Shown piece by piece: positions 20,295 to 47,660 of a DNA stretch of 64,000 bases. The DNA is from Gammaproteobacteria bacterium. GTDB taxonomy: Bacteria; Pseudomonadota; Gammaproteobacteria; CBDBNL01; G965229495. The translations under genes and the position numbers were made by a program. Position 1 is the first letter of the stretch. Every line of letters begins with the position of its first letter. Location: contig OZ245880.1 of assembly GCA_965229495.1 (NCBI GenBank), forward strand, positions 2,357,211 through 2,421,210, given 5' to 3'. The notes under the pieces are model-generated. The model searched no databases. It saw only the letters and a program-made list of their open reading frames with translations, and was not told the origin of the DNA.

Positions 20295-21900
20295 CCCGGG
20301 AGCGCGAGCCCTGGGAGCGCGACCGTCTCGGTCGCCGTGTAAAAAGCGCCGCAAGGCCATCATTTAGGCAAATCCGCTCCTACCAGCAGCGCAGCTAACT
20401 TGTAGCACCCCCCTTACCCTCGACATCGCGGAGCACCGCCCAGGCGGAGCGCCGACTTGCAGTCGGCAGGAGACGAGCTTTGCTCGCCTCCCCACCACTC
20501 CCCTCACACAAGCAGCGAATAAAGCCAATAGCACACGGCCCCCTGGGACCACGCCCACCCCACCCACCGCATAAAAAGCGCCGCAGGCCATCCCTCCGCC
20601 AAATAAGCTTCTCCTAGCAGCGCAGCTAACTTGGAGCACACCCTTGCCCTCAACATCGCGGAGCGCCGCCCAGGCGGAGCGCCGACTTGCAGTCGGCAGG
20701 AGACGCCCGCATGGGCGTCTCCCAAAAAGCACGATGCCCCCTAGTAGCACGGTGCCCTGGGAGCGCGACCGTCTCGGTCGCCGCATAAAAAGCGAGCGCG
20801 CCAGCGCTCAACCTTCGGGCAAATAAGCTTCCCCTAGCAGCGCAGCTAACTTGGAGCACCAACTTGCTTGGAGCACCCCCTTGCCCTCGACATCGCGGAG
20901 CGCGCCCAGGCGGAGCGCCGAGTTGTACTCGGCAGGAGGCGAGCTTGCGAGCCTCCCCACCACTCCCCTCACACAAGCAGCGAATAAAGCCAATAGCACG
21001 GTGCCCCCTAGCACCACGACCATCCCACCCACCGCATAAAAAGCGAGCGCGCCAGCGCTCAACCTTCGGGCAAATAAGCTTCTCCTAGCAGCGCAGCTAA
21101 CTTGGAGCACACCCTTGCCCTCAACATCGCGGAGCGCCGCCCAGGCGGAGCGCCGACTTGCAGTCGGCAGGAGACGCCCGCATGGGCGTCTCCCAAAAAA
21201 GCACGATGCCCCTAGGAGCACCCCCTTGCCCTCGACATCGCGGAGCGCCGCCCAGGCGGAGCGCCGAGTTGTACTCGGCAGGAGGCGAGCTTTGCTCGCC
21301 TCCCCACCACTCCCCTCACACAAGCAGCGAATAAAGCCAATAGCACACGGCCCCCTGGGAGCGCGACCATCCCACCCACCGCATAAAAAGCCCCGCAGGC
21401 CATCCCTCCGCCAAATAAGCTTCTCCTAGCAGCGCAGCTAACTTGGATCACCAACTTGCTTGGAGCACCCCCTTGCCCTCGACATCGCGGAGCGCCGCCC
21501 AGGCGGAGCGCCGAGTTGTACTCGGCTGGAGGCGAGCTTTGCTCGCCTCCCCACCACTCCCCTCACACAAGCAGCGAATAAAGCCAATAGCACGGCCCCC
21601 TAGCACCCCACCCACCCCACCCACCGCCTAAAAAGCACAGCGCCCAACCTCCGCCCAACCAAGCACCCCTCAGCAGCGATTTCCTGGGAGCGCGAGCGTC
21701 TCGCTCGCCGCATAAAAAGCGCCGCAAGGCCATCATTTAGGCAAATTCGCTCCTACCAGCAGTATTTACAGCTATTGAGGTAAAGCCAGGTGAAATAAAC
21801 CCAAAGCACAACATACCCAAGCAGGGCAGGGCACCCCCTAGCACCACGCCCACCCCACCCACCGTATAAAAAGTGAACCCGCAGGGTTCGGATCCAGCCA
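20295..21900. repeat. REP/BIME-like modular repeat array (cluster 1) in the convergent gap between ORF1 and prmC
   Basis: There are about 8 units of variable length (roughly 90-345 nt), each delimited by the marker ATAAAAAGCG. Their modules: H1 CTGGGAGCGCGASCGTCTCGSTCGCCG; H2 GCCGASTTGYASTCGGC (6 copies here); H3 GGAGACGCCCGCATGGGCGTCTCC or GGAGGCGAGCTTTGCTCGCCTCC; the box CACACAAGCAGCGAATAAAGCCAATAGCAC; and the tract CCCACCCCACCCACC. All units have the same orientation. Confidence 0.85.
21866..21889 (-). terminator. Putative intrinsic terminator of prmC (minus strand)
   Basis: The minus strand reads GAACCC-TGC-GGGTTC followed by ACTTTTTAT, about 38 nt after the prmC stop codon. Confidence 0.6.
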
Positions 21901-21926
21901 CGACCCCACCAACTCCCATCCAACAC

Positions 21927-22973
21927 CTACCACCTATCCCCCCACCACCCCCAACTCACCCTCTCCAGCCCCGCCCAATCGAGCTCGGTCTGCACGCCAG
22001 CATAGCCACCCCTACCCAGCTCCCCCCGCACCGCCGCCCCCTGCCCGCAGCCATGCTCCAGCGCCAGCAGCCCTCCCGGTACCAGATAATCTCTGCTCTG
22101 ACAAATAATCTCACGCAAATCCCCCATCCCCTCTTCACCCATCCCCCCTTCACCCATCCCCCTAGCCACACCCCCAGCCATCGCTATCCCATCGCCACCC
22201 ACACCCCCCGCCACCCCCACACCCCCAAACAACCCCAAACCCCCAGCAACCCCCGCCACCAACGCCCCCCTTGGCTCATAACCCAGCCGCGCCAAATGCG
22301 GATCGTCAGCAGCCAGATAAGGCGGATTAGCAACAATCGCATCGTACTTTTCATACCTTCCACCCCCACAACTACCCCCAAAACCATCCCCACAACCATC
22401 TCGATCCCCACAACCATCCTCAAAACCACCACCAAAACCCACACCACCAAAACCACCATCCCTAAAACCAAACCCCCTCAACCAATCACCCTCCACCCAC
22501 CGCACCTCCAGCCCCAGCTGCCGCCCATTCGCGCGCGCCACCGCCAGCGCCGCCGGGCTAATATCAGTCGCCGTCAACTGCCAGCGCGGCCTTTCCGAAG
22601 CCAAAGCCAACGCAATCGCTCCCGACCCGCAGCCCAAATCGATAACCTTTATACCATCCTCATCCGGCAGCAAACGCAAACACAGCTCCACCAACAGCTC
22701 GCTCTCCGGCCGCGGAATCAGCACATTCTCATCCACCCGCAACTCCAGCGACCAAAACTCCTTCCGCCCCAGAATATAAGCCACCGGCTCCCCACCCAAC
22801 CGCCGCCGCCAATAACCTTGAAAAGCCTGCCATTGCTCGCTCGTCGGCGCATACTCGCAATGCGCCAGCAACCAGGCACGGCTCCGCTGCAAAACCTCGC
22901 ACCAGAGCAGCTCCCAATCCAGCAGCAAATCTCGCGGACATTGCTCCCGACTAGCTTGCAGCGTCAGCATCAT
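21927..22973 (-). CDS. prmC: Peptide chain release factor N5-glutamine methyltransferase (PrmC/HemK), carrying two atypical Gly-rich insertions
   Basis: The SAM-binding motif VIDLGCGSGAIALALA is present. The NPPY catalytic motif (IVANPPYL) lies at nt 22317-22328. PrmC-like flanking sequence includes GEPVAYILGRKEFWSLEL, ENVLIPRPESE and YEPRGAL. At 348 aa the protein is long for this family because of the insertions at 22356-22478 and 22122-22253. Confidence 0.85.
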   Translation of the reverse strand: MMLTLQASREQCPRDLLLDWELLWCEVLQRSRAWLLAHCEYAPTSEQWQAFQGYWRRRLGGEPVAYILGRKEFWSLELRVDENVLIPRPESELLVELCLRLLPDEDGIKVIDLGCGSGAIALALASERPRWQLTATDISPAALAVARANGRQLGLEVRWVEGDWLRGFGFRDGGFGGVGFGGGFEDGCGDRDGCGDGFGGSCGGGRYEKYDAIVANPPYLAADDPHLARLGYEPRGALVAGVAGGLGLFGGVGVAGGVGGDGIAMAGGVARGMGEGGMGEEGMGDLREIICQSRDYLVPGGLLALEHGCGQGAAVRGELGRGGYAGVQTELDWAGLERVSWGWWGDRW

Positions 22974-23290
22974 CTAATTTCCCAAACTTCTTGACGGTCC
23001 AAAACACAAGCCACCAGCTCCCCAGCCAACGACCCCCCTCATCCAACATCTCCCCAGCCAACCGCCGCCGCCAATACCCCTGAAAAGCCTGCCATTGCTC
23101 GCTCGTCGGCGCATACTCGCAATGCGCCAGCAACCAGGCACGGCTCCGCTGCAAAACCTCGCACCAGAGCAGCTCCCAATCCAGCAGCAAATCTCGCGGG
23201 CATTGCTCCCGACTAGCTTGCAGCGTCAGCATCATCTAATTTCCCAAACTTCTTCCGGCCCAAAACACAAGCCACCGGTTCCCCATCCAA
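22770..23290. repeat. Direct tandem repeat with a 262-nt period covering the prmC 5' end
   Basis: CCCAAACTTCTT ends at 22992 and again at 23254. CTAGCTTGCAGCGTCAGCATCATCTAATTTCCC occurs at 22951 and 23213. A partial third copy (CCAAAACACAAGCCACCGGTTCCCCA) follows at about 23255-23290. Confidence 0.85.
22951..23235 (-). pseudogene. Duplicated 5' fragment of prmC: start codon plus about 58 identical codons, then divergent sequence
   Basis: The 94-aa ORF begins MMLTLQASREQCPRDLLLDWELLWCEVLQRSRAWLLAHCEYAPTSEQWQAFQGYWRRRL, identical to the PrmC N-terminus. It then diverges and ends overlapping the real prmC start. Confidence 0.7.
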
Positions 23291-27570: not shown

Positions 27571-28590
27571 CCCCACCCCCTTGCCCTCAGCACGGGCGGA
27601 GCGCCGCCCAGGTGGAGCGCCGAGTTGTACTCGGCAGGAGACGCCCGCATGGGCGTCTCCCCAAAAGCACGGTGCCCTGGGAGCGCCGAGTTGTACTCGG
27701 CAGGAGGCGAGCTTGCGAGCCTCCCCACCACTCCCCGCACACAAGCAGCGAATAAAGCCAATAGCACGGTGCCCTGGGAGCGCGCCCATCTCGCTCGCCG
27801 CATAAAAAGCGCCGCAGGCCATCCATCCGCCAAATAAGCTTCTCTTAGCAGCGGAGCTAACTTGGAGCACCGACTTGCCCTCGACATCGTGGAGCGCCGC
27901 CCAGGCGGAGCGCCGAGTTGTACTCGGCAGGAGGCGAGCTTGCGAGCCTCCCCACCACTCCCCTCACACAAGCAGCGAATAAAGCCAATAGCACGGTGCC
28001 CTGGGAGCGCGCCCATCTCGCTCGCCGTATAAAAAATGAACCCGAAGGGTTCGACATTTCGGCAAATTCGCTCCTACCAGCAGCATCTACAGGTACTGAG
28101 GTAAAGCTAGGTTAAATAAACTCAAAGCACAACATACCCAAGCAGGGCAGGGCACCCCTAGCACCACGCCCACCCCACCCACCATATAAAAACCCAGCCC
28201 ACCAGCGCTCAATCCTCAAGCAAATCAGCCGACTACCAGCAGCGATTTCCTGGGAGCGCGAGCGTCTCGCCCGCTGTATAAAAGCCAGCCACCAGCGCCC
28301 AACCTCCCGCCAACCAAGCCACCTCAGCAGCGAAGCTCGCCCACGGCGGAGCGCCGAGTTGTACTCGGCAGGAGGCGAGCTTGCGAGCCTCCCCACCACT
28401 CCCCTCACACAAGCAGCGAATAAAGCCAATAGCACGGCGCCCCCTGGGAGCGCGCCCGTCTCGCTCGCCGTATAAAAAATGAACCCGAAGGGTTCGACAT
28501 CTGGGCAAATAAGCTGCTCTTAGCAGTTAATCTTGGGATTGGTGGTATCGCCAAGCCGCCCTCGCCAAGACGCAAGCCCGCTCGCCTCCC
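27571..28590. repeat. REP/BIME-like modular repeat array (cluster 2) between rlmH and the giant lipoprotein gene
   Basis: It uses the same module set as cluster 1. H2 copies lie at 27619, 27685, 27912 and 28353. The CACACAAGCAGCGAATAAAGCCAATAGCAC box occurs 3 times. GAACCC-GAA-GGGTTC hairpins lie at 28038-28052 and 28481-28495. A module of about 130 nt (28060-28190) is shared with 21730-21860. Confidence 0.85.
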
Positions 28591-28720
28591 CATCACTTAA
28601 CAAACCACAGATACCCACATACAAGCTCAGCGCGTCAATAAACCACCTTCTGCCAAACCACCTCTCCACTCTCCACTATCAACTATCAACTATCCATTAT
28701 CAATTAACAACCCCACCGCC

Positions 28721-28996
28721 CAACCCCACAAAATTACGCTATACTCACAAAACTAAAAAATTAGTTACTCAGCAACCAGGAATAAATAATAAGGCATTAT
28801 TAAATAGGCATATATCTTATCCTGTTAAGATTTTGAAAAACCTAACAATAATAAGTTTAAGCTATATTCCTTAGCCCAAAATAAAAACTCATAGATAATT
28901 AAAGCGCCACCATCACAAATAATATAAAGCTTACATATGATCAGCCACACCAGCGGCGCACTATTAACCAAAGTCAACGCCATATCAGCAGCGACC
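28721..28996 (+). promoter_or_regulatory. Conserved AT-rich non-coding leader upstream of giant lipoprotein gene 1; its paralogous copy is at 47661-47924
   Basis: The two copies of about 270 nt align with many identities and small indels, including a 2-nt indel that rules out a shared reading frame. The region is far more AT-rich than its surroundings and contains a conserved TATACT and a TTGAAAAACCTAA box. Confidence 0.5.
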
Positions 28997-29035
28997 ATCA
29001 AATCCCCGTAGTAAAACCAAGAATAAACCACACGG

Positions 29036-29112
29036 CATCGTGGAGCGCCGACTTGTAGTCGGCATCGTGGAGCGCCGACTTGCAGTCGGCAGGAGGCGAG
29101 TTCACGAGCCTC
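29036..29112. repeat. REP doublet (H2 twice plus an H3-like hairpin) in the leader of giant lipoprotein gene 1
   Basis: CATCGTGGAGCGCCGACTTGTAGTCGGC is directly followed by CATCGTGGAGCGCCGACTTGCAGTCGGC AGGAGGCGAGTTCACGAGCCTCC. The doublet is absent from the equivalent position upstream of the paralog. Confidence 0.8.
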
Positions 29113-29206
29113 CCCACCACTCCCGTCCACCCAAGCACCTCAACTTAAACCACACAACCTCATCCCCCAAAACACCAACAACTACCAGCGCCGTCCCCCA
29201 CAATCC

Positions 29207-29254
29207 ATGCCCAAACCACTCCTCCTAGCCCTCACCCTCGCCCTCGCCGCCTGC
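29207..29254 (+). other. Lipoprotein signal peptide with lipobox L-A-A-C (Cys16) and Asp at +2
   Basis: MPKPLLLALTLALAAC|DFSSG; the TGC codon is at 29252-29254 and is followed by GAC. Confidence 0.75.
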
Positions 29255-32200
29255 GACTTCTCCAGCGGAGACAGCGACACCTCGCTCTCCAGCGACGCAC
29301 CGCAGCCCAACTCAGTCAGCATCACCGAAACGTCGATCACCGACAACCAAGCCACAGTCAGTTGGAGCGCCAGCGGTCCCGAACCCGCCGAGTATTGGCG
29401 CCTGTATCAAAATAACCTCCTGGTCTGCTCGGCAAATCTCGACATCGACCTCAGCTCCTCCGACGCCAACGGCGACTACCAACAAAGCGCCACCTGCACA
29501 CTAACCCTCGAAGAAGGCGAGAACAGCGTCTACGTCCAGCTCTGCAATTTCTCCGCCAGCGGCTCCAGCACTTGCTCGGCGTCGTCGGTCAAACAAATCT
29601 TCTACGAAGCCGCCGACCCCACTCCCGGTGCCGTCTCTTGGCAAGACCTCCCCAGCAGCACCAGCGCCACCAGCATCAACGTAACCTGGCTGAAAGAGGC
29701 GGGCGGCAACGGCGACTATTGGTTCGTCTACCACAACGAAGCTGAAGCCTGCACTGGCGACCTAAGCTACACCGAAGACTACGTTGCCCAAAGCGCCGAT
29801 TGCATCGTCAATCTTGACGAAGGCGTCAACCAGCTCCAAGCCGAGCTCTGCTACGACCAACCCGCCGGCATCCAAGACCTGTGCACGCAATCCGAAGTCG
29901 CCAGCGTAACCCTGGTCCTTGACCCCGCCAAAGAATTGGCAACGCCCGTGCTCGACGCCCTCGACGATTCCGACCACTACGCCGAAGTCGACATCAACAT
30001 CAATTGGCACAAAGACACCAGCGTCGGCAGCGCCGGCGAAGATTGGTCGCTGTACCGCAACGGCGCCATCGTCTGCGAAGACCTGCTCGCCGCCGACGCC
30101 ACCAGCGCCAGTTGCACAATCCAATTAACCACAGGCGACAACACCCTGCAAATCGAGCTCTGCACCGACGTCGCCACCTATTCCGGCGCCAGTTGCACGC
30201 AATCGAACACGCTCACCGTCGCCGCCCTCGACCCCAACCCCCTCGACCCGGGAACCCCACAAATCACCAACGTCCTCCCCGCCGAAACCTTCGACAGCAC
30301 CCTGGCGTTGAATTGGTCGATCGCCAGCGGCAACGGCGTCCAGCATTGGAGCGTCGACCTGAACGGCGCCGAGCATTGCATCACCAGCAGCCCTAGCGAA
30401 TACTACGAATCCGGCTCCTGCCAACTCAACCTCGCCGTCGGTCTCAACACCATCAGCGTCAGCGGTTGCAATTATGGCTACGCCGACCGCAGCGCCTGCA
30501 GCACCAGCACCGACCTGATCCTCGAGCGCGTCTCGCTCCCGGGCAGCGCCGAGCTCACCTCCAGCTTACCCGCCACCACCTACGAAGCCGAGCACAGCCT
30601 CAGCTGGGTACGTAGCACCGGCGCCAGCGCCGAATACTGGTTCGCCAGCGTTCTAAGCGATTTTCACGACAACCAGTGTAATACCGAGCTCAGCGCGCAA
30701 ACCCCGCAGAGCGATTCCTGCACTATTGAACTCAGCAGCGGTCATAACGAAGTCTACGTCCAAACCTGCGTTTACAACCACAACCGCAGCTCCTCGTACT
30801 GCGCCGAATCCGACAGCCTATTCGCCGAGCTGCTAGCGCCGATCCCCGCCACCCCCGAGCTCAGCACCGAATCGCAAAGCATAGCCGACGACAGCATCGA
30901 GATTAGATGGAGCAAAAGCTCGGGCGCCAACGGCAGCTATTGGGGCGCTATTAACAACGGCGCCGCCACCACTTGCTCCGATCAGCCGGTGATCACCGCT
31001 GGCGACGGCCAATCGGGCTTTTGCGACCTGCCGTTGGTCGTAGGTGAGAACCTGGTCAGCGTTCGCCTCTGCGCTGATAACGTCGCCGGCACCGCCTCCT
31101 GCGCCGAATCCAGCACCATCAGCATCACCCGCCTGGTCGCGTCGCCCGAATTCACCAGCTTATCGTCGGTTGCCGCCGAAGAGAGCAGCACAGCGGTCTT
31201 CTACACCGCAGTCGTCGAAGACAACGACAGCAGCGCCGAGCAAATCAGCTTCGCCCTCAGCGGCGGCGATGATGTCGACTTCTTTCGCCTCGACAGCGCC
31301 AGCGGCGCGCTCGCCTTCCAAGCAGCAGTCGACTACGAAGCACCGCAAGACAGCGACGCCAACAACGTCTACCAACTCGACATCACAGCCACCGACGAAC
31401 TCGGTAACTCGGCGCAACTCGAGCTCGCGGTCAGCCTCAGCAATATCAACGACAACCCCCCAAGCCTCACCACCCCACCGCCAACCCTCGCCACCGCCGA
31501 GAACGACAGCAGCATCATCTACACCTTCACTGCCAGCGACCTCGACGGCGACGCTCTCAGCTACAGCCTCGACGGCGCCGACGCCCAGCACTTCACCCTC
31601 GGCGCCACCAGCGGCGCGCTGCAATTTAATAACGCCCCCGATTACGAAACACCGCTCGACGCCAACCAGGACAACGTCTACGAACTCGCCATCAGCGTCG
31701 CCGACGGCGACTATCAAAGTACCGAACAGCTCAGTATCAGCGTTAGCGATAGCAACGACGAAACCCCCCAAGCCACCAGCGCCTCCTCGATAGCGCTGGC
31801 GCTCGATAGCCTGGTCGTCGGCGCCACCGTCTACACCGTAACCGCCATTGATACCGACGCCGACGATCAAATCACCTACACCCTCGGCGGCGTTGACCAG
31901 CAACACTTCGTCCTCGGCGCCAGCAGCGGCGAACTCGCCTTCAGCCAACTACCGTCGAGCATCGACAATCCGCAGGACGCCGACGGCGACAATATCTACG
32001 AAATCCTAATAACCCTCACCGACCTCGGCGCCAACTCCAGCGATCTCAACCTCAGCGTCAGCGTCGTCGCCATTATCGGCAATGCCCCCGAATTTGCCCA
32101 AGCCACAGCCAGCGTCGACTTCGACGAAAACGCCGTCGGCACCGTCTACACCGCCGTCGCCACCGACGCCGACGGCGACGCCCTCACCTACAGCATCAGC

Positions 32201-35200
32201 GGCGACGACGCCGAGCACTTCGCCATCGACGCCACCAGCGGCGTCCTCGAATTCAACTCAGCCCCCGACCACGAGCAACCCACCGACAGCGGCTTCGACA
32301 ACGTCTACAACCTCATCATCGCCGCCGAAGACCCCCTCGGCAACCAGGCGCAGCAAAGCCTAACAGTATCGGTCAACGATCTCAACGACAACCCCCCACA
32401 ATTCGCTTCCAGCACAGCAGCACTCGACGCCAGCGAAAACACCACCACCATCACCACCATCACCGCCACCGACGCCGACAGCGCCGCCGAACACTCCACC
32501 CTCACTTACAGCCTCAACAGCGGCAGCGACCTCAGCCTCTTCACCATCGACCCCACCAGCGGCGCCCTCAGCTTCAATCAAGCCCCCGACTACGAATCCC
32601 CCCAAGACGCCAACACCGATAACACCTACGAACTCAGCATTACAGCCACCGACAGCCTCTACACCGCCAGCCAAGAACTCACCGTCACAATAACCGACGT
32701 CAACGAAGCCCCCAGCTTCACCGAGACCAGCGTCGCCCTCGCTACCGCCGAAAACAATAGCAGCTTCATTTACACAGTCGACGCCGCCATCGACCCCGAC
32801 CAAGACCAAACACTCTCCTACCAACTCAGCGGCGACGACCAATCAGCCTTCACCCTCGACCCCGCCACCCGCGCCCTCGCCTTCATCACCACCCCCAACT
32901 ACGAAAGCGCCAAAGACCAGGACACCGACAACACCTACCAAATCACCATCACCGCCACCGATGGCGAATACAGCGCCAGCCAAAGCATCGTCATCGCCGT
33001 TAGCGACTACAACGACGAAGCCCCGCAATTCACCAGCTCCAATGTGCAGGCAGTCGACTACACCACAGTCCAAGTCGGCGACATCATCTACACCGCGCAA
33101 GCCACCGACGCCGACGCTGGCGACCAAATCACCTACGCCCTCGGCGGCGCCGATGGCGGCTACTTCACCTTCGATAGCAGCAGCGGCGCGCTCGCCTTCT
33201 ATTACTTGCCGGCATTAGAGGATTTCCCCGAGGGCGGCGGCATCGCTTACGACCTCGCCATCACTGCCACCGACCTCGCCGACAATAAAACCACACTCGA
33301 CCTGGTCGTCAATTTGCTCGACGACACTGGCAGCCCCCCCGAATTCGCCTCAGCCAGCGTCAGCATTGATGTCGACGAAAACAGCCCTGACACTATCTAC
33401 ACCGCGCAAGCCACCGACGTCGACGCGGGCGATACCCTCAGCTACAGCATCTCTGGCACCGATCGCCAACTGTTCAGCATCGACTCCACCAGCGGCGCGC
33501 TCGCCTTCGTCACCCCACCCAATTTCGAGCAACCCACCGACGCCGACGCTGACAACGAGTACCACCTGATCATCACTGCCACCGATTCCCCAGTCGGCAA
33601 CCAAGCCCAGCAAAGCCTCGCCATCACCGTTAACAACATCAACGACAACTCACCGCAATTCGCCCTCAGCAGCACTACCTTCGCCATCCCCGAAAACAGC
33701 ACCGCCATCACCACCATCGCCGCCACTGACGCCGACGCCGACGACCTCACATTCTCCCTAACAAACAGCACCGACTCCTCCCTCTTCACCCTCGACCCCA
33801 CCAACGGCACCCTAAGCTTCACCCAAGCCCCCGACTTTGAGACCCCTCAAGACGCCAACACCGACAACACCTACGAGCTCGAACTCAGCGTCTTCGACGG
33901 CGCCAACACCATCAGCCAAGCCATCACCATCACAGTAAGCAATATCGACGAAGCCCCGAGCTTCGCCGTCACCAGCCAAGACCTATCGATCAACGAAAAC
34001 AGCAACGGCAGCGTCTACCAGGCGCAAGCCACTGACCCCGAGGACGCCCCGCTCGCCTACAGCGCCAGCGGCACCGACGCCGCGCTCTTCACCTTAGATA
34101 GCACCAGCGGCGACCTCGCCTTCATCATCCCACCCAACTTCGAGCAACCAACCGACCAAAACACCGACAACATCTACAACCTCACCCTCACCGCCTCCGA
34201 CGGCGTCAACCAAACCAGCCAAGACCTCGCCATAACAGTCGCCGACGTCAACGAAGCCCCCACCTTCGCCAGCGCCAGCGTCGAGACCAGCAGCGTCGAG
34301 AACAACGCCAACTTTGCCTATAGCGTCGCCGCCGCCAGCGATGTCGACCAGGACCCGCTGACCTACTACCTCGATGGCGCCGATAGCACCGCCTTCGACT
34401 TCGACGCCGGCACTCGCGTCCTGCGCTTCGCCGCCAATCCCGACTATGAAAACCCCGCCGACCAGGACGGCGATAACCTTTACCAATTCAGCGTCGTCGC
34501 TTCCGATGGTGCTCTCGAAGCCAGCCAAGCCATCACCATCACCGTCGTCGACCTCAACGACGAAGCCCCGCAATTCACCAGCCCGAACTCGCAGACAGTC
34601 AACTACACCAGCGCCCAAGTCGGCGCCGTCATCTACACCGCCACCGCCACCGACGCTGATGCCAACGACCAAATCGCCTACGCCCTCAGCGGCGCCGACG
34701 CCAGCGCCTTCAGCTTTAGCACCACCAGCGGCGCGCTCGCCTTCGCCCAATTACCCAGCCTCACCGAGTTGCAAAGCGCTGGCGGCAGCATCGTTTACCA
34801 GTTGACCATCGTCGCCACCGACCTCGGCGCCAACAGCAGCGAGCTCGCCCTCAGCGTCAGCCTGCTCGACGACACTGGCAGCCCCCCCGAATTCGCCCAA
34901 GCCAGCGCCAGCATCGCCGTCGACGAGAACATTGACACCACCATTTACACAGCGCAAGCCACCGACGCCGACGGCGACGCCCTCAGCTACAGCCTCGCCG
35001 GCACCGACGCCCAGCACTTCACCCTCGACGCCACCAGTGGCGCGCTCGCCTTCGTCACCCCACCCAATTTCGAGCAACCAACAGACGCCGACGCTGACAA
35101 CGAGTACCACCTGATCATCACTGCCACCGATTCCCCAGTCGGCAACCAAGCGCAGCAAAGCCTCGCAGTTAGCGTCAACAATCTCAACGACAACGCACCG

Positions 35201-38200
35201 CAATTCAACCTGGCGTCCGATGCCTTCAGCGTTAATGAAAACAGCACCGCCGTCGCCACCATCGCAGCCAGCGACCCTGATGGCGACGATCTGACTCTTG
35301 CCTTGATAGCCAGCACCGATTCCAACTACTTCACCCTCGACCCCACCAGCGGCGCGCTCGCCTTCACCTCTGCCCCCGACTTCGAAAACCCCGCTGACGA
35401 CAACACCGACAACACCTACGAACTCACCCTCAGCGTCTTCGACGGCGTCACCACCATCAGCCAAGCCATCACCGTCGCCGTCGCCAATATCAACGAAGCC
35501 CCGAGCTTCGCCGCCGCCAGCCAAGACCTATCGCTCAGCGAAAACAGCATCGGCAGCATCTACCAGGCGCAAGCCACCGACCCCGAGGGCGCCAGCCTCA
35601 CCTACAGCGCCAGCGGCACCGACGCCAGCTTGTTCACCTTAGATAGCAGCAGCGGCGACCTCGCCTTCAAGACCGAACCCAACTTCGAGAACCCGCTCGA
35701 CCAAGACAGCAACAACGTCTACGAACTCAGCATCACCGCCGCCGACGGCGCCAACCAGACCAGCCAAGGCATCACCGTAACAGTCGCCGACATCAACGAA
35801 GCTCCGATCTTTACCAACACCAGCGTCAACCTCGACACCGCCGAAAACGATAGCAGCTTCACCCACGTAGTCGACGCCGCCGACGACCCGGACCAAGGCG
35901 AAACACTCACCTACCAACTCGGCGGCGACGACGCAGCCGCTTTCGACTTCGACGCTGCCACCCGCGCCCTCAGCTTCAAGGCAACCCCCGACTACGAATC
36001 GCCCCAAGACCAAAACTCCGACAACACCTACCGACTAACCATCACCGCCGCCGATAGCCAATATTCCACCGCCCAAACCATCACCATCGCCGTCGCCGAC
36101 CTCAACGACGAAGCCCCGCAATTCACCAGCCTGAGCTCACAATCAGTCAGCTACACCACAGCCAAAGTCGGCGACATCATCTACACCGCCCAAGCCACCG
36201 ATTCGGACGCTGGCGACCAAGTAAGCTACACTCTCGGCGGCACCGACTCCAGCGACTTTACTTTCAACGCTACCAGCGGCGAACTCGCCTTCGCCCAATT
36301 ACCCGACCTGACCGAGTTCCAAAGCGCTGGCGCTGGCGGCATAGCCTACGCTCTGACCATCACCGCCACCGACCTCGCCAACAATAGCAGTGCCCTCGAT
36401 CTCACCATCAACCTGGTCGACGACACTGGCAGCGCCCCCGAATTTACCCAGGCCAGCGCCAATATCAGCGTTGACGAAAACGTTGTTGGCGTTATCTATC
36501 AAGCCGTAGCCAGCGATGCCGACAGCGATCCAGTGGCCTATAGCCTCGAAGGCAGCGATGCTGCTGCCTTCACCATCGACTCCAGCAGCGGCGAGCTCAG
36601 CTTCGGCTCACCCCCAGACCACGAACTACCAGCAGACGCTGGCGCTAACAACGTCTACGAATTAACCATCGTCGCCACCGATTCCCCAGTCGGCAACCAG
36701 GCGCAGCAAAGCCTCGCGGTTACCGTCAACAACCTCAACGACAACGAGCCGCAATTCGCCCTCGCCAGCAGCGCCTTTGATGTCCTTGAGAACAGCACCG
36801 CCGTTGCCACCATCGCCGCCGCCGACGCCGATGGCGACGACCTCACTTTCGCTCTAACAAACAGCACTGACGCCAGCTTCTTCAGCCTCGACCCCACCAG
36901 CGGCGTCCTCGCCTTCACCTCTGCCCCCGACTTCGAGAACCCCCAGGACAGCAACGCCGACAATACCTACGAGCTCGAGCTCAGCGTCTTCGACGGCGCC
37001 CACAGCACCAACCAAGCCATCACCGTCGCCGTCGCCAATATCGACGAAGCCCCGAGCTTCGCCGCTGCCACTCAAGACTTGTCGGTCAACGAAAACACCA
37101 GCGGCAGCATCTATACCGCCCAAGCCAGCGACCCCGAGCAAGCCGCGCTCGCCTACAGCGCCAGCGGCGCCGACGCAGGACTATTTACTATTAATAATAC
37201 CAACGGCGACCTTAGCTTCAACAGCTCACCCAACTTTGAAACCCCGCTCGACAGCGACACCAACAACGTCTACCAACTCACCATCACCGCCACCGACGGC
37301 ACCAACCAAGCCAGCCAAGCTGTAACCGTAACAGTCGCCGACGTCAACGAAGCCCCGATCTTCGCCAGCGCCAGCGTCAACCTTGATACCGACGAAAACG
37401 CCGCCAGCTTCGCGCACATAGTCGACGCCGCCGACGACGAGGATCAGGGCGAGCAGCTCACCTACCAACTCGGCGGCGACGACCAATCAGCCTTCGACTT
37501 CGACGCCACCACCCGCGCCCTAAGCTTCAAGCAAAGCCCCGACTACGAATCGCCCGCTGACCAAGACAGCAACAACGTCTACCAAATAAACATCGTAGCC
37601 TCTGATAGCGAATACGATGCCACCCAAGCCATCACTATCGCAGTCGTCGACCTCAACGACGAAGCCCCGCAATTCACCAGCGCCAGCTCCTTGGCGCTTG
37701 ACTACACCAGCGTCGCCGTCGGCACCACCGTCTACACCGCGCAAGCCACCGATGCCGACGCCAACGACCAAATTACCTACGCCCTCAGCGGCGCCGACGC
37801 CAGCGCCTTCAGCCTTGATAATGGCAGCGGCGCGCTCGCCTTCACCCAAGCGCCGAGCTTGGATTCTCCCCAAGACGCCGACGGCGATAACTTCTACCAA
37901 ATCACCATCACTGCCACCGACCTCAACGCCAATAGCACCGACCTGGCCCTAAGCGTCAACGTCGTCGACGACACTGGCAGCGCGCCGACATTCGACCAAG
38001 CCAGCGCCAGCATCGCCGTCGACGAAAACGTCGTCGGCGCTATCTACACCGCGCAAGCCACCGACGTCGACCCAGGAGACATCCTCACCTACAGCATCGC
38101 AGGCGCCGACTCCAGCCTGTTCACCATCGGCTCCTCCAATGGCGAGCTCACATTCAACACCGCCCCCGACTACGAGAACCCCGCCGACAGCGGCGCCAAT

Positions 38201-41200
38201 AACACCTACGAACTGAGCATCGCTGCCACCGACGCCATCGGCAAGCAAGCCAGCCAAAGCCTGACTATCACCGTCAACAATCTCAACGACAACCCTCCGC
38301 AATTCGCCCTCAGCGCTAACTCCTTCGACGTCGCCGAGAACAGCACCGCCGTCGCCGCCATCGCTGCCGCCGACGCCGATGGCGACGACCTTACTTTCTC
38401 TCTAACAAACAGCGCCGACGCCAGCTTCTTCACCCTCGACCCCACCAGCGGCGCCCTAAGCTTCACCCAAGCCCCCGACTTCGAGAACCCCGCTGATGAC
38501 AACACCGACAACATCTACGAACTCGAACTCAGCGTCGCCGACGGCAGCCACACCACCACCCAGGAAATTACCATCACAGTCACCAACGTCGACGAAGCCC
38601 CCGCCTTCGCCGCTACCACTCAAGATTTACCCATCAACGAAAACACCAGCGGCAGCTTCTACCAGGCCCAAGCCACAGACCCCGAACAAGCCACTCTGAC
38701 CTACAGCGCCAGCGGCGCCGACGCCAGCTTGTTCACCTTAGATAGCAGCAGCGGCGACCTCGGCTTCATCACCCCACCCAACTACGAGCAACCAACCGAC
38801 CAAGGCACCGACAACGTCTACCAACTCGACATCAGCGCCAGCGACGGCGCCAACCAAACCAGCCAAGCTGTAACCATCACCGTCGCCGACGTCAACGAAG
38901 CTCCGAGCTTCGCCAGCGCCAGCGTCAATATTGATACCGACGAAAACGCCGCCAGCTTCGTCCACATAGTCGACGCCGCCGACGACCCGGATCAAGGCGA
39001 AACACTTACCTACCAACTCGGCGGCGACGACGCAGCCGCCTTCGACTTCGACGCCGCCACCCGCGCCCTCAGCTTCAAACAAAGCCCCGACTACGAGCAA
39101 CCAACCGACCAAGACAGCAACAACGTCTACCAAATCGACATCATCGCCTCTGATGGCGAATACGATACCACCCAAAGCATCGCCATCGCCGTAACAGACC
39201 TTAACGACGAAGCCCCGCAATTCACCAGCGCCAGCTCCTTGGCGCTCGACTACACCGGCGTCGTCGTTGGCGCCATCGTCTACACCGCGCAAGCCACCGA
39301 CGCCGATGCTGGCGATAGCGTTGTCTACACCCTCGGCGGCGCCGACTCCAGCGCCTTCGGCTTCGACTCCAGCAGCGGCGCGCTCGCCTTCGTCCAGGCG
39401 CCGAGCTTAGAGACTCCCAAAGACGCCGACGCCAATAACATCTACCAACTCAGCATCAGCGCCACCGACCTCGCCAACAACAGAAGCGACCTGGATTTGA
39501 GCATTAGCGTCGTCGACGACACTGGCAGCGCGCCGACATTCGCACAAGCCAGCGCCAGCATCGCCGTCGACGAAAACACTATCAGCACCATCTACACCGC
39601 GCAAGCCACCGACGTTGACCCAGGCGACATCCTCACCTACAGCATCGACGGCACCGACTCCACACTTTTCACCATCGATCCCAGCAGCGGCGACCTCGCC
39701 TTCAACCAAGCCCCCGACTACGAGAACCCCGCCGACAGCGGTCAAAACAACACCTACGACCTCAGCATCACAGCCACCGACGCCATCGGCAAGCAAGCAA
39801 GCCAAAGCCTGACTATCACCGTCAAAAACCTCAACGACAACCCGCCACAATTCGCCCTCAGCGCTAACTCCTTCGATGTCCCCGAAAACACCACCACCAT
39901 CACCACCATCACCGCCACCGACCCTGATGGCGACGATCTAACTTTCTCTCTCACAAACAGCACCGACTCTAACCTCTTAACCATCGACCCCACCAGCGGC
40001 GCCCTAAGCTTCAACCAAGCCCCCGACTTCGAGAGCCCCGCTGATGACAACGACGACAACACCTACGAGCTCGAACTCAGCGTCGCCGACGGCACCCACA
40101 CCACCACCCAAGCCATCACCGTCAGCGTAACCAACGTCAACGACGTCGCCCCCAGCTTCGCCGCCGCCACCGACTCGGCCAGCGCCCCCGAAAACACCAG
40201 CGGCGTCGTCTACACCGCCAGCGCCACCGACATCGAAGGCGACACTCTAACTTACAGCCTCGCAGGCACCGACTCCAGCTACTTCACCATCGACCCCAGC
40301 AGCGGCGCCCTCAGCCTCGCCAGCGCTCTCGACTTTGAAAACCCCCAAGACCAAAACAGCAACAACGACTACGAACTCAGCATCACCGCCTCCGACGGCG
40401 CCAACAGCGCCAGCCTCGCGCTCACCGTTCTAATCCAAGACCTCAACGACAACAGCCCCGCCTTCGGCTCAGCCTCAGAGACAATCCAAGTCCCGGAAAA
40501 CACCAGCGGCAGCATCTACACCGCCAGCGCCACCGACCTTGACGCCACCGACACCATCACCTACAGCCTCTCCGGCACCGACTCCGCCCTCCTGCAAATC
40601 GACCCCACCAGCGGCGCCCTCAGCTTCCAGCAAGCACCCGACTACGAAAACCCCCAAGACCAAAACAGCAACAACGTCTACGAACTCACCATCACCGCCA
40701 CCGACACGGGCAACAACAGCAACCAACTCGCCCTAACCATCGAAATCCTCAATACCAGCGAGCAACCACCAGAGATCACCCAGCTAATCGGTGGCGACCA
40801 AGCCATCGACTTCACCTTTGACGACTTCGGCACCTCCAAGCAGCTCAGCATCTACCGCTTCACCGACGACGCTTGCAGCACCGCCGACCTCGCCTCCGAC
40901 CACACGCAGTGCTACGCCAGCGACGACACCAGCGGCGACACCGCCAGGCTCGACTTCAGCGGCGCCCTCAGCTCCGCCGATTACCAGGTCAGCGATTCCG
41001 GCCTGCGCGCCGGCCAGCGTTATTACTACCAGATATGGGCAGCCGAATCCAGCTCGGCATCTGATATCGGCGTCTGGTCGCAGCGCTACAGCGCCATGAC
41101 CTGGCCGGCCGCCGACGTCGGCACCACCCTCGGCTACGATGCCAGCTCCACCGGCGGCACGCAAATAGTCCTCAGCTTCGTAGCCCCCAGCTCCGGCGAC

Positions 41201-44200
41201 GACGATTACTATCACTTCCTGCGCCATAGCGACCCCGATTGCGCCAGTTATGCCGCAGGCACCGCGCTCAACCGCGCCGATTACAGCGATTGGAGCGCCC
41301 TGGTCGACCCCATAAACGGCGGCACCTGCTCCGGCCTCACCGAGCTCAGCCTCAGCGGCACCAACCTGCACGCCCCCAGCGGCGGCGCCAGCGATAGCCA
41401 CACCGACAGCGGCCTCGCCGAAGGCACTACTTATTATTACCTGCTGCGCACGGTCAACTATTCCGGCGCCAACGGCGTCGACTTCACCACCCGCTCCGGC
41501 GCCTCGGCGACCTCGAATCAATTGCAGTGGACCACCGTGCCGCCCGCGCCTGCAGCCGACGACCTGCAAATCCTCAGCAGCCCTGCCGTAGCCGCCGACC
41601 AAATCAGCATCGCCTTCGCCTCCGTAGCTGGCGCCAGCAGCTATAAGCTCGTGCGTTACATCCCGGCCAATTGCAGCGTAGCCGACCAGCAAATCAGCAG
41701 CGTCGAGGGCTGCTCGGCAAGCGCTGGTTACGCCGAGCAAGACTTCAGCGCCGCGCAATCGTCTTACACCGACAGCGGCCTGCAAGCCGGCACCACTTAC
41801 GCTTACCAGTATCGCGCGCTCAACGCCGCCGGCAGCTCGCAATATTCACCCGCCGTCAGCGCCAGCACCACCTTCGATAAGCCGACCATCAGCCTCGCCA
41901 GCTCGGTCAGCCTGGCAGATGCCAACGTCATCAGCGTCAGTTGGTCAGCCAGCAGCGGCATCGATAGCTACAGCATCCTCGGCTCCAGCAATGAGTCCTG
42001 CCTAATCAGCGCCACCGCCAGCGCCGACCCCCAAGCCTCAGCCGCCGCTTGCGAACACAGCATAAACCGCACCGCTACCAGCTCGGCGACTTCCATAGAC
42101 ATCGACCAGCTCGACGACGGCAGCGCGCTCGCCTCGGGCAGCTATTACTACTTCGCTGCCGCCGCCGTCTCCTCCAGCGGCTCCAGCGACTATTCCGATG
42201 TCGCCAGCGCCATCACCGCCCCCGCCAGCCCCAACGTCATCAGCCTCAGCCCTGGCTATCGGCAAGTCGAAGTCGCCTGGGATGTCCCCGCAGGTAGTGC
42301 GGAAAACGTCCTCTATCGCTACACCGATAGCACCTGCTCGCTGTCAAGCTTCCCCAGCAATTGCGGGCTCGATACCGGCAGCTACACCTTCACTAGCTCT
42401 ATACCCAACGATGCCTACATAGACGACAACTCTGGCAACGGCTTGGTCGACAACCAGATGTACTACTACGCGCTCCAAGCCAGCAACGCTGGCGGCGCCC
42501 GCTACACCGAATCGGCGTCGGTGCCCGTCGTGCTCACCGCGCCCAAAACCCCCGATAGCCTCATCGCCAGCGGCGAGCGCCTGGCTGTGCAATTGCGCTG
42601 GGGCTCGTCGCCCACTGATGCTGACGACGGCGTCGCCGGTTACGAAATCCTGCGCTCCAGCTCCAGCACTTGCTACGGCGGCAGCATCAGCGCCTACGCC
42701 GATTACGCCAGTTGCCCCGATGCTGCCCTGTTCCTTTTTGACTACGGCAGCGGCGAGGGTCAGAACGAATACCAATTCAGCGATAGTGATCTCGACCCCA
42801 GCAGCGGCAGTGAGCCACTCGCAGGCGGCAGCACCTATTACTACTGGATACGCTCCTTCTACGGCAGCCCCAGCGCTAACGATGCTATCTACAGCGCCTC
42901 CACCAGCGCCCCGACATCCGCCACGCCTATACTACCCGCGCCCGCCAATCTCGCCGTAGACGCCGAGCAAAGCGCCAGCGGCACCAGCACCGACATCAGC
43001 ATCGCATGGGACGAGGTCGAAACTGCCAGCGGCTACGTGCTCTATCGCACCACCAGCGCCGACTGCCTAACCATCGTCAACCGCAACACTAGCGAGGCGC
43101 AAAATGACTGCGCCGATTACCAGCGCGAAGAGCTATCCGGCAGCAGCACCACCGCAACCACCCATAGCGACCTCCCCAGCGATACCATCTATTACTACTA
43201 CGTCGCCGCCGCCAATAGCGCCGTCGAGGGCGAACTGAGCTCGGCGCTCTCTACCCGCAGCGCCACCGTCGCCCCCACCATCACCAGCACCCAAACCTAT
43301 AGCAATACCGTCGTCAGAGTCGAATGGGACGCCAGCTCGGATTACGACGCCACTTACCACCTCTACGCTTACAGCGGTGATTCCAGTTGTAACCCTTTCA
43401 CCGCCGAGTGTCCGCACGAAAGCCTAACTACCTTCACTGCCGATGGCAGCAGCGATTATTACAACTACGCCCAGCAATTAGAGCCCGGAACGCATTACAA
43501 CTTCAAAATGCTCGCCATCACCGAGTACGAGCAAGAAGACGGGACTGAGGATTTTGTCCACGGCGCCATTTCCAGCGCCGCCGCCACTGCCACCACTGCC
43601 GCCAACCATCCCACCATAACTGGCCACGAGTATGTCGACTACGATTATTTCGATCTTTTCGTCTCCATAGAGGGCGGTCTCGATTCAGTTCTTTACTGGG
43701 TGCTGTATACGCTCGATCCCAATTGCAGCGTAAACGACGTGATAGCCGGCCAATGCGCCTTGGGTGGTCAATTGGGCACTGCCGAGCCAGCTAGCAGCAT
43801 TCGCCTGGCTAACTACGATTTTGGTGTTTATTACTACGTCCTTAGCCTGAACTCCGAGGATTACTCCCTCTTAACTCCAGACGAAGACACCCCTCCATAT
43901 CTAGTGCCAGGGCGCCCGGCGCAGGTGGAATTAAGCGTCAACGCCACGAAAAACTCCAGCGGCAACGGCAGCGACGTCAAAATCGAATGGCAGCAATCCA
44001 GCGGCGTCGATGGCTACGTCTTGTACCGCACCACCAGCTCCGGCTGCATAACTGATTCTGACCGCAGTGGCACCAACTGCGAAGATTATCAGCGCCAGGA
44101 AATCTCCGGTTCATCAACCACCAGCATCACCCACAGCAACCTGCCCAACGATACTATCTACCATTACTCGGTAGCCACCATCAGCAATGGCTCCGAGGGC

Positions 44201-47200
44201 GCCCTCAGCGAGAGCATCGGCACCCACACCGCCACCAGCGCGCCGCCCATAGTCGATGTGATCACTTATAACGAAAGCCAGATCGAAGTTACTTGGTGGG
44301 CAACCTCAGCCTTTGAGACCGATTACTACATTTATGCCTATAGCGGCGACGCCAGTTGCGACCCTCATGCCGAAGTTTGTCCAGGTGAGAAATTAGTTTC
44401 GGTAGCTTTCGATTTCAGCGCCGAATACACCACTGTTTTCACAGGCCTGACCCCAGGCACGCGCTATAACTTCAAGGCTTATTCTAATGTCGCATACAAT
44501 CAGGAAAATGGCGGAACCGACTATATCGTCGGCTACATATCAGAAACCGCCAAAACTAACTACACCTTCGCTAACCACCCCACCATCACCGGCCACCAGG
44601 AAAACGACGACGGCGACATCTTGCTCGAATTTGCCATAGACGGCGGCACCGATGATTTAACCTACTACATATTTAGAACCACTAACGGCGATTGCACCAT
44701 AAGCGAAGTTGTCAATTCCGAGAGCAAATGCACCGATCTCGGCACTGCCACTGCCACTCCGGAGCAAAACATAATCTTTCATAAAGTCGACGATAACGAT
44801 TACTACTACCATGTCATCAGCGCTAATCCATTAGGACCCTTGGCGTGGGACGATAGCGTCGCGCCCTACTACATAGCTTCCTATGTAGTAGTAAAAGATA
44901 TCGATGTTGAAATGACTCACCTTGTGGCTCATTCCAATTCTGATTTCATTACCATTGATTTTGTTGCAGCAGAGCCCATACCTGCCGACAACAAGTGGAC
45001 TATGCGTATGTACCCGCCTTTGATAGAAAATTCTGAAGTAGAAGAATTTGTACTTACTGATGAGCAGATTAACGGTGACTCGGCGTTGGCGTTCCAGATA
45101 AAACCCCAATATTATTTCCAACCGCATGCATTTGAGCTCTACGCTTCTCGGCTTGATGACACCGACTACATTCTCCTCGCGAGCTTTATTGTTTGGGATA
45201 TTCAGCCACCACCTCTGGTAGCGGTAGAGAAAAATGCCGATAGTAATAAATATAGTGAAGAAAAAGACTTTGATATCTATATTCTACACTATCACGACGA
45301 TTTCGATGTCAGTTCCGTAGTCGGTATTGAGACTCTCAAGGCTGATATAACTATGATTTTTACTGATGCTGATGCTGTGTTTTGCCGCCCTCCATATGTT
45401 CCAATAGTTGATATGATTTATGGCAATTGCCCACTTGTCCGTTCTTACTCCGAGTTTGATGGTTCTGAGCTGCTTTTTAACCGAGTAGCGGGAGATACTG
45501 GTAATCAACTCCTCCACGATGTTGTAGTTAGTAGTAATGAAACCTTTCAAGCTTCCCAAGGTCTCTTTCAAGTATACGATATTACTTTCGCTGGCACCAC
45601 ACCTATATACGACGACCAGGATGACCCCTGGAGTTTTTTTATGGGTCCCTACATAAGTAGCTTTACCATCGATACCGATTTTGGCAAGTATAGCCTCGAT
45701 TATGAAGAGGCTTTCTCATACCTGTCTATAGAACTGGCGTTTGGAGATGATGAGATGGCTGAATTCCAAGTCTATGGCAGCAGCTCTTCAAATGCACTGC
45801 TCCCCACTCCCACTCTGGTGCTTAGCCCAGCGCTGCTATCCCAAGGCTTGAGCGCTGGCAGCGCTTACAACTCCTGGGATCTGCACCTGCTCTGGGAAGC
45901 CATCAACGGCATCAACTCCTACGCCATCCACGAATACAGCGATTCCGATTGCGCCTACCTGCTCTCAGCCCCCGAGCTCTGCGGCAATTACAACCTGCAC
46001 AGCAGCCTCAGCCCCGATTTCAGCCATGCCTTCGCCGCCGCCGACATGGGCAGCTACTTCTACTATCGCCTACAAGCCTACGACGCCGCCGGCAATTCCA
46101 GCGAGCTCGGCGAGCAGATCGCCGTGCACATCCCCCAAGCGCTCAACGATAGCGGCGTCGATATTTGCGTCGTTTCTGATGCCCTCAGCGGCGCCCAGGA
46201 TTGCGCCAGCGGCCGCGATGCCAATGTCGCCGCCAGCGCCAAAGTCGGCTCCGGCTCCGCTGGCTTTGACTTCAGCCTGCTCGAAACCGAAGCCGACGCC
46301 AGCGCCAGCTCCGACTCGCACTGCGTCCACGACAACACCACTGGCCTCAGCTGGTCGTCCTGGTCAGTGCCCGCCGACGAACTGGCTTCCGCCGCCGATC
46401 CCGAAACTAATGCCACCCGCAGCAGCGCCACCTTCGCCGAGCTCGCCACCATCACCCTTGACGCTTGCGGGTATAGCGATTGGAGCCTGCCCAGCATCCA
46501 CGAGCTGCTATCCATCGCCGATTACAACCAATCCGAGGCTAAGATCGATAGCAGCTTCTTCACCGACTTCAACAGCAGCCAACCCAGCTACTGGAGCGCC
46601 AGCGGCCACATCCTCGATTTCAGCAGCGGCGACATCAGCCTCGAAGCCAACGCCAGCGCCGCCCACAGCGTCCTCCTCGTGCGCGGTGATCGGCGTTGGG
46701 GGCATGACTTTGGCGCCGAGCGCTTCCAATTAGTCGAGCACATCGATGATGGCAACACCAGCATCCACCTGGTCTACGACAACCACAGCCAACTGCACTA
46801 CGCCCCCTGCCTCGCCGGCCAAAGCTACGACCCGGTCAACCATAGCTGCCTGGGCGCGCCCACCGAACTCGACTACATCGACAGCCTCAACGCCTACGAC
46901 AGCAACTCCACCTGGCGCCAACCCAACATCAAAGAACTAATCGCCATCCTCGACCCCACCCACAACCTCCTCCCCAACCCCACCTACTTCCCCAACCCAA
47001 CCTCCACTTCTGATCCCAACTCTTCCTCTGATTCCAACTCCACCTCTGATTCTTCAAACGATTTTTCCTCTGATACAGTTTCCGCTTCCACCACCAGCTC
47101 CCCATACCCAGCACCAATCTTCATCCTCACCCCCAGCTCCCAAAGCTCAGACCACATCACCGGCCGCCAACTCAACCCCAACAACCAATCCACCACCCCC

Positions 47201-47272: not shown

Positions 47273-47282
47273 AGCCTCTGAT

Positions 47283-47490: not shown

Positions 47491-47660
47491 CCACCCAACC
47501 CACCACCTCTTCCTCGCCCTGCCAGGAGCCAAGCCCACCCGCCTCCCCACCACTTCATAAAACCACAGACACACAGATACACACAAATTAACTTATCAAC
47601 ACCACAGACCCTCTGCCAAATCACCTCTCCAACCACCAATTATCCACCCTACACACCCCC

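Follow-up and report, generated by a model that had tools for sequence, protein, structure and literature searches.

The DNA examined here is a 64,000-nucleotide stretch of a gammaproteobacterial contig (OZ245880.1, positions 2,357,211 to 2,421,210; hereafter the window), which contains three giant plus-strand reading frames that we call genes A, B and C. Gene B (29207-47272, plus strand) encodes 6021 amino acids (aa), and gene C starts at 48069 on the plus strand and continues beyond the right edge at 64000, with 5310 codons inside the window and a product of more than 5310 aa. Our subject is the products of genes B and C, which a sequence-only reading had taken for lipoproteins with Asp directly after the lipobox Cys, a feature that it likened to the export signature of the Klebsiella pullulanase PulA.

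The N terminus encoded by gene B reads MPKPLLLALTLALAAC followed by DFSSGDSD, and that encoded by gene C reads MPKLLLLLLTLALVAC followed by DSSSVDTP. The presence of a lipoprotein signal was evaluated using our own rule-based script in the style of PROSITE PS51257, which requires a positively charged n-region, an uncharged core, the pattern [LVI][ASTVI][GAS]C and a Cys at positions 15-35. It was found that both N termini pass this rule, with Lys3, an uncharged hydrophobic core of 12 residues and Cys16; the lipobox is L-A-A-C in B (core PLLLALTLAL) and L-V-A-C in C. The signal peptide of B (aa 1-15, MPKPLLLALTLALAA; 29207-29251, plus strand), which consists of the Lys-containing n-region, the 12-residue hydrophobic core and L-A-A before the Cys, is followed by the lipobox Cys at +1 (codon TGC, 29252-29254), the predicted lipidation site. 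Next come the Asp at +2 (GAC, 29255-29257) and a disordered tether rich in Asp, Ser and Gly (DFSSGDSDTSLSSDAPQPN), together at 29255-29311, which form a putative Lol-avoidance or surface-sorting motif. In gene C, the signal peptide (MPKLLLLLLTLALVA) is encoded at 48069-48113 and the lipobox Cys and the Asp at +2 at 48114-48116 and 48117-48119, all on the plus strand. The mature N termini given in the sequence-only reading, C-D-F-S-S-G from 29252 and C-D-S-S-S-V from 48114, are correct to the base.

An alternative translation start cannot remove or extend this signal, because the ATG in both B and C is the first ATG, GTG or TTG past an in-frame stop codon, and the nearest in-frame alternative comes only at codon 244 (B) or codon 246 (C), within a stretch that is conserved as protein in the homologues. 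There is no Shine-Dalgarno sequence before the ATG of B or C; the ATG context cacaatcc(c)ATG is retained at orthologous loci, and the signal-peptide sequences of the two genes contain synonymous differences.

The family to which B and C belong was delimited by an exhaustive profile hidden Markov model search of 1.84 billion representatives, in which 11 clusters matched the whole N-terminal region, whereas a word-indexed protein search yielded only three truncated homologues. All relatives come from two assemblies of the European Nucleotide Archive (ERZ25074195 and ERZ25074189), and scans with N-terminal profiles found no relatives in GTDB species representatives or JGI metagenome contigs. The C product is 87% identical to its orthologue P0004 (5952 aa), which ends in GH18 and GH19 domains, and the B product is 85% identical to P0005 (6049 aa). 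Related loci retain the tandem pair, with an Lcl_C-ended gene followed by a GH18/GH19-ended gene and several such copies often found in one genome, and the distant profile matches are signal-peptidase-I proteins with a W..WW.G..G..W.L..N module. Two further features of the related loci were observed. Heptanucleotide runs (CCATTAT or CAATTAT), which could be phase-variation-like or regulatory repeats, lie directly 5′ of several family-gene starts (at about 9960-10000 in locus L087, 6834-6873 in L002 and 9960-10000 in L085). Genes for small Lcl_C/DUF1566 proteins of 169-199 aa with ordinary signal peptides adjoin family genes (L002 12511-13023, L087 13993-14502 and L084 29645-30244), and there is no such small gene in the window.

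The lipobox is conserved throughout the family. All 10 homologues that were aligned (41-92% identity) keep its Ala-Cys, with variation in the flanking residues; the lipobox recurs in every one of the 11 homologue clusters with a full N terminus, the most divergent being about 40% identical, and in every intact N terminus among about 40 cluster members. The 59 Cys residues of the B product are distributed as one in the lipobox, 24 in six N-terminal modules (four in each), none in the cadherin zone and 34 in the distal region, and all 13 full-length relatives have an even number of Cys residues (24 to 58) beyond that of the lipobox. Therefore, the lipobox Cys is the single unpaired Cys, as is expected if this residue is lipidated while the others form disulfides in an oxidising compartment. 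It could be argued instead that B and C are not lipoproteins and that signal peptidase I cuts between ALA and AC, leaving proteins that are soluble or anchored otherwise, because A12-L13-A14 is an AXA-like site just before A15-C16 and the lipobox call comes from a rule rather than from a trained predictor. However, every homologue has the Cys right after the short hydrophobic core, with varying flanks, and the same Cys is unpaired in all 13 proteins, so that we consider this alternative very improbable. Judging from these sequences, B and C are very probably lipoproteins, with lipidation predicted at the +1 Cys; the window itself contains neither lgt nor lspA.

Downstream of the tether, gene B encodes six tandem ChiN-like beta-sandwich modules of the fibronectin type III (FnIII) or immunoglobulin (Ig) kind with four conserved Cys each (29312-31126, plus strand), a block conserved throughout the family regardless of how long the stalk is or which distal domain follows. 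This block is followed on the same strand by a Cys-free cadherin-type stalk of about 31 repeats that recur every 104 aa or so, as judged from Pfam matches and periodicity (31127-40873), and by a distal region (40874-47272) of Cys-paired Ig/fn3/Pur_ac_phosph_N-like modules with two Lcl_C (DUF1566) domains, the best Lcl_C stretch lying at about 46322-46684. The Pfam matches in B were Cadherin (1e-127 and 2e-52), Cadherin_4 and Big_9, then fn3, Pur_ac_phosph_N-like and the two Lcl_C (DUF1566) domains. Gene C has the same six N-terminal modules, with its first 500 aa 94% identical to those of B, followed by a stalk of about 41 repeats of the cadherin type (aa 631-4973) and by a GH18 domain that contains a DIDWE motif (about 63348-63971, plus strand) and is cut by the window end (PF00704, 9.7e-27; the catalytic DxxDxDxE is present as FDCIDIDWE). 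The count of 31 to 41 cadherin repeats made in the sequence-only reading is plausible from the extent of the Cys-free zones (B, aa 633-3889; C, aa 631-4973) and their period of about 102-106 aa.

The nature of the six N-terminal modules was evaluated in several ways. The homologue P0001 has a faint match to PF08329 (ChitinaseA_N), and the modules resemble the N-terminal domain of chitinase A. An AlphaFold model of the B N terminus (mean predicted local distance difference test, pLDDT, 79) has aa 1-29 disordered (pLDDT <50) and tandem beta-sandwiches beyond. Foldseek comparison of the modules returned generic FnIII/Ig tandems, SiiE among them and none specifically chitinase A, and the N-terminal profile matched no sequence in the PDB.

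B and C likely act outside the outer membrane, because they have chitinase- and chitin-binding-type domains, a stalk (>100 nm) that far exceeds the width of the periplasm, and paired Cys residues. The argument that such proteins must cross the outer membrane, made earlier from the cadherin rod, is in this way supported by the ChiN-like, GH18/GH19 and Lcl_C domains as well. Relatives encode LptE (C-GFSLRG) and BamE (C-ALPGQ), and therefore the cell has an outer membrane; neither of these periplasm-facing lipoproteins has an acidic tether.

Giant adhesins of type I secretion systems (T1SS), of the SiiE, LapA and MpIBP type, are like B and C in having several thousand residues, calcium-stiffened Ig/cadherin-like rods and a distal binding region. 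These adhesins have no Sec signal, carry a C-terminal RTX-type (repeats-in-toxin) signal, leave the cytoplasm unfolded and are Cys-poor, whereas B and C begin with a lipoprotein signal, lack any RTX match and contain 29 Cys pairs. The C terminus of B is a tail rich in Ser, Thr, Asp and Asn, in which there is neither a membrane (hydrophobic) segment nor an RTX signal. An identity as giant T1SS RTX adhesins was rejected on the basis of the N-terminal Sec/signal peptidase II signal, the lack of any RTX or haemolysin-type Pfam match and this S/T/D/N-rich tail, and sorting by a C-terminal anchor was rejected because the C terminus is not hydrophobic.

The constant six-module block also bears on the possibility that the lipid anchor stays in the inner membrane through Lol avoidance, with the six modules (about 6 x 4 nm) spanning the periplasm and the remainder of the protein threaded out through a secretin or other pore. 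Such a trans-envelope stalk would resemble the T1SS adhesins that stay plugged in their channel; the block is constant despite the varying stalk and distal domain, and its length would be roughly that of the periplasm width. Secretins of the GspD/PilQ family are reported to be necessary for exopolymeric slime secretion in cyanobacteria and myxobacteria (PMC12475490). However, a lipoprotein held in such a way would be without precedent, and a permanently filled secretin would be costly for the cell. Furthermore, ChiN-like modules bind chitin in chitinase A, which points to an external site for them, and we regard this arrangement as improbable.

The residue at +2 and the composition of the tether were compared with those of 87 predicted lipoproteins obtained by scanning 80 loci (about 1.4 Mb) of diverse Gammaproteobacteria with the same rule. 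In this background, the +2 residue was Gly in 25 cases, Ser in 21 and Asp in two, both of the latter followed by Lys. In the family, +2 is Asp in seven of the 11 clusters, at identities of <50% (B/P0005/P0007, C/P0004, P0006/P0001, P0002, P0010, P0011 and a 6445-aa protein in L087). Elsewhere this position is occupied by Glu (the P0009 clade, CESSSLDSP, 12 strain variants), Gly (P0008, CGSSTPDSS), Ser (P0012/13, CSGGGSSTS) or Thr (P0014, CTGGGGGGS). The number of Gly, Ser, Asp or Asn residues among the seven positions +2 to +8 is six in B, five in C and four to six in every family member, and it is at least five in 8 of 11, compared to 2 of 87 background lipoproteins. Asp at +2 is strongly enriched, yet not invariant, and the conserved trait is the G/S/D-rich composition at +2 to +8.

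A motif of similar composition has been described in Acinetobacter baumannii, in which surface lipoproteins dependent on a type II secretion system (T2SS) have a G/S-rich ('GGG') or N/D-rich sequence at P2'-P8', such as CGGGSSTI, CGGGSSSG, CGDDSSSD and CNDDNSSV; surface display requires this motif, GspN is needed as well, and GGG or GDD are Lol-avoidance signals in Pseudomonas (PMC12802150). The tether of B and C fits this reported T2SS/GspN motif (more than four G/S or N/D residues at P2'-P8') as a D/S mixture and not as a pure GGG or ND(N/D) sequence. The family as a whole spans both branches of the motif, the acidic/Ser branch (CD[SF]SS, CDDST, CESSS) and the Gly-rich branch (CSGGG, CTGGGGGG).

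The A. baumannii protein InvL is, like B and C, a lipoprotein adhesin of Ig-like domains with a distal binding domain (PMC9245377), and the family variants CSGGGSSTS and CTGGGGGGS closely resemble the GspN-dependent CGGGSSTI and CGGGSSSG (PMC12802150). InvL differs in size, with 492 aa and three Ig-like domains compared to more than 50 domains in B and C; in addition, B and C have a mixed D/S motif (CDFSSGDS, CDSSSVDT), and the dependence on T2SS/GspN that is known for InvL is putative for them. By analogy, InvL is a direct small-scale precedent.

PulA needs PulD and PulN and has a Ser-rich motif, and substitution of the Asp at P2' diverts it to Lol; it shares with B and C a lipoprotein signal, Asp at P2' and a serine-rich stretch, and it degrades polysaccharides at the cell surface (PMC12802150). 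Of the PulA start given in the sequence-only reading, CDNSSS, the published description bears out the Asp at P2' and a richness in serine (PMC12802150). PulA is compact, its gene lies beside the pul operon and it comes from an enterobacterium, whereas B and C are rod-like proteins of about 6000 aa, have no sequence homology to it and come from a non-enteric host. PulA has about 1100 aa, and the gsp genes observed in relation to B and C are gspG and a gspH-like gene, several kb away. What stands of the pullulanase-like signature is that the residues past the Cys resemble the T2SS surface-lipoprotein motif (PMC12802150) and that gspG is present in sister genomes; Asp at +2, in contrast, is not the conserved determinant.

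A likeness in architecture was found to enzymes of Saccharophagus degradans 2-40, which has 31 lipobox carbohydrases, one of them a chitinase, a gspC-N operon, and the enzyme Lam81A with a lipobox/cadherin/GH81/FN3/FN3 arrangement (PMC2386152). Its cadherin domains were reported as carbohydrate-binding modules (Fraiberg 2011 as cited in PMC3124978). The organism is a marine gammaproteobacterial polysaccharide degrader, and its enzymes, like B and C, combine a lipobox, cadherin-like modules and a glycoside hydrolase, but they are of about 700-1300 aa with one cadherin module, compared to 6000 aa and 31-41 repeats.

The housekeeping genes in the window are prmC-like, SBP_bac_3, proA, rsfS and rlmH. 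The window ProA is, among the matches listed, 50-56% identical to proteins of diverse non-enteric Gammaproteobacteria (among them Endozoicomonas, Cellvibrionales, Thiothrix and SUP05). On the evidence of these genes, the host is a gammaproteobacterium and not an enterobacterium, with no finer placement from ProA.

There are no gsp genes within the window. However, a 151-aa GspG is encoded about 7.5 kb downstream of the gene for the C orthologue P0004 (TIGR01710, 170.6 bits relative to a cut-off of 88.85; Pfam T2SSG, 3e-41); this sister-genome GspG has a prepilin motif (G, then VTLIE), and a weak GspH-like gene is next to it. The same gspG is about 7.6 kb from a C-like gene on ctg51812, which also carries a B orthologue, and gspG is present on the contig of P0011 as well. 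Members of the GspG clusters are located on contigs of 4,347,421, 290,820 and 3,620,478 bp, which are the sizes of family-bearing contigs, the SGGG clade included. A T2SS probably exists in the lineage, because sister genomes have a true gspG on contigs that also carry family members. Near family genes in the eight related loci inspected, gspD, gspE, gspF and gspN were not seen. It was also observed that gspG and the gspH-like gene form an isolated pair beside moeA, yidD and yidC, syntenic with the GH18/GH19-ended giant gene (L088 34550-35833, minus strand; L089 10001-11284, plus strand; L090 and L091). By synteny, the genome of the window may have the gspG/gspH-like pair about 8-10 kb beyond the right window end.

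We propose a route for B and C in which Sec would export the chain, the lipobox Cys would be lipidated and signal peptidase II would cut before this Cys. The first mature residues, Asp and then the Ser/Gly/Asp-rich disordered tether, would avoid the Lol pathway, and the same residues would mark the protein for the outer face of the outer membrane. The likeliest carrier would be the T2SS, which serves PulA, InvL and further lipoproteins that depend on T2SS/GspN. The product would be a lipid-anchored surface fibril, with the six disulfide-bonded ChiN-like modules near the membrane, followed by a calcium-stiffened cadherin stalk of about 31 (B) or 41 (C) repeats and a distal working end made up of Lcl_C/DUF1566 binding domains in B and of GH18 plus GH19 chitinases in C (GH19 by homology with P0004). 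Its likely role would be to hold and digest chitin-containing particles away from the cell. We hold this whole chain through a T2SS/GspN-type route with middling confidence, by analogy with the systems compared above; in it, we infer lipidation, Lol avoidance, the surface location, the use of the T2SS and the chitin target. The T2SS/GspN-type route appears to be the best supported of the routes considered, because the tether fits the sole experimentally defined gammaproteobacterial surface-lipoprotein motif and gspG is present. The paired Cys residues fit periplasmic disulfide folding, as T2SS substrates do.

Several points weigh against this reading. To our knowledge, T2SS lipoprotein substrates do not exceed about 1500 aa (SslE), and B and C are about 4-fold larger. 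In the current view, the T2SS pushes substrates that are compact and folded, and it is an unsolved problem for this route how a folded rod of 150-250 nm could be loaded within a periplasm about 25 nm wide. The T2SS genes observed are gspG and the gspH-like gene alone, in sister genomes and not in the window, and the inspection in which gspD, gspE, gspF and gspN were not seen covered up to 10 kb from family genes in eight related loci only. The Ser/Gly/Asp-rich tether could be a mere flexible linker, and the background lipoproteins with which it was compared were drawn from other Gammaproteobacteria by our own regular expression, not from the host genome or by a trained predictor. Because orthologues have Glu, Gly, Ser or Thr at +2 (CESSS, CGSST, CSGGG and CTGGGGGG), a strict +2 rule does not hold. 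The E. coli rule, under which the sequence-only reading took Asp at +2 as the sorting determinant, should not be carried over to this host, which lies outside the enterobacteria; Lol avoidance by Asp at +2 is a feature of Enterobacteriaceae, uncommon elsewhere, where other signals act (PMC6469965).

The variability of the +2 residue (D, E, G, S or T) is also what would be expected if B and C follow a Lol-dependent route and are then exposed by another machine, whether Slam-like, BAM-assisted or of another kind, with Asp at +2 having no sorting role and the tether serving as a spacer. The largely enterobacterial distribution of the Asp+2 rule, with different sorting signals elsewhere (PMC6469965), the non-enteric host and the observation of just two T2SS genes are likewise in keeping with a Lol-dependent route. 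On the other hand, all of the tether variants fit reported Lol-avoidance or T2SS motifs, namely GGG/GDD in Pseudomonas and G/S- or N/D-rich sequences in Acinetobacter (PMC12802150); very few of the background lipoproteins have Asp at +2 or a G/S/D-rich tether; and neither the window nor the DNA within 10 kb of a family gene, inspected in eight related loci, contained a gene for a Slam-like protein or another translocator. Therefore, we consider the Lol-dependent route rather unlikely. Returning to the T2SS/GspN-type route, we suggest tentatively that the rod may pass the secretin domain by domain while the lipid anchor is handed across, or that a novel export route for giant lipoproteins may exist. 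Domain-by-domain passage, if true, would be processive type II secretion, which is not foreseen by the present piston model for compact substrates.

Upstream of gene B is a conserved region (28640-29206, plus strand) that is common to gene C (about 47500-48068) and to orthologous loci: the roughly 500-600 nucleotides before B closely match those before C as well as the upstream regions in L083 and L084. This shared region has an AT-rich block plus an invariant stretch AGCGGCG...TCAACGCCAT.TCAGCAGCGACC without an Rfam match, and its sequence suggests a common promoter and long leader. Rfam gave no match over the whole window. The intergenic regions at 20295-21926, 27571-29130 and 47273-47500 are packed with palindromes resembling repetitive extragenic palindromes or miniature inverted-repeat transposable elements (GGAGCGCCGA[CG]TTG.A.TCGGCAGGAG...), with 13 core copies, all on the plus strand, and terminator-like hairpins (GAACCCTTCGGGTTC) are repeated at 28052 and 28495 on the minus strand.

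The window from 20000 to 64000 has an extreme strand asymmetry, with a plus-strand GC skew of -0.2 to -0.54 and an AT skew of +0.2 to +0.3. This asymmetry persists in intergenic DNA and across the prmC-like gene on the minus strand (21927-22973; skew -0.54). The plus-strand genes have a third-codon-position GC skew of -0.64 to -0.76, and flanking genes on related contigs have a much weaker skew. A plus-strand open reading frame of 373 aa (21873-22994) was rejected as a gene, being the antisense shadow of this prmC/HemK-like methyltransferase gene, and a 212-nucleotide direct repeat (22781-22992 and 23043-23254; 97% identical) duplicates the 5′ end of the prmC/HemK-like gene.

Gene A (3-20294, plus strand) has 6763 codons in the window, and its start is probably upstream of the window. 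The first 4400 aa are without a Pfam domain, the GC content is lower (43-50%), there are just 10 Cys residues, and the C terminus has a PQQ (pyrroloquinoline quinone) beta-propeller plus PKD (polycystic kidney disease) domains. No homologue of the first 600 aa was found among 5.8 billion proteins.

The transit of lipoproteins to the bacterial surface is an open question, and the T2SS/GspN route and its motif were defined recently, on proteins of about 50-170 kDa. By analogy, B and C would be a giant form of an already known type of protein, the T2SS-type surface lipoprotein, and their interest would lie mainly in the demands that they make on export. The family consists of predicted lipoproteins of 1300 to more than 6000 residues with the same type of motif and extracellular domains; with its constant N terminus and a stalk that ranges from a few repeats to 41, it would be a natural size-limit series. 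Whichever route is used, the family would stretch the supposed capacity of the T2SS or of surface lipoprotein export generally. For the ecology of the organism, these results suggest an uncultured lineage of Gammaproteobacteria whose chitinases sit on long stalks anchored by lipid.

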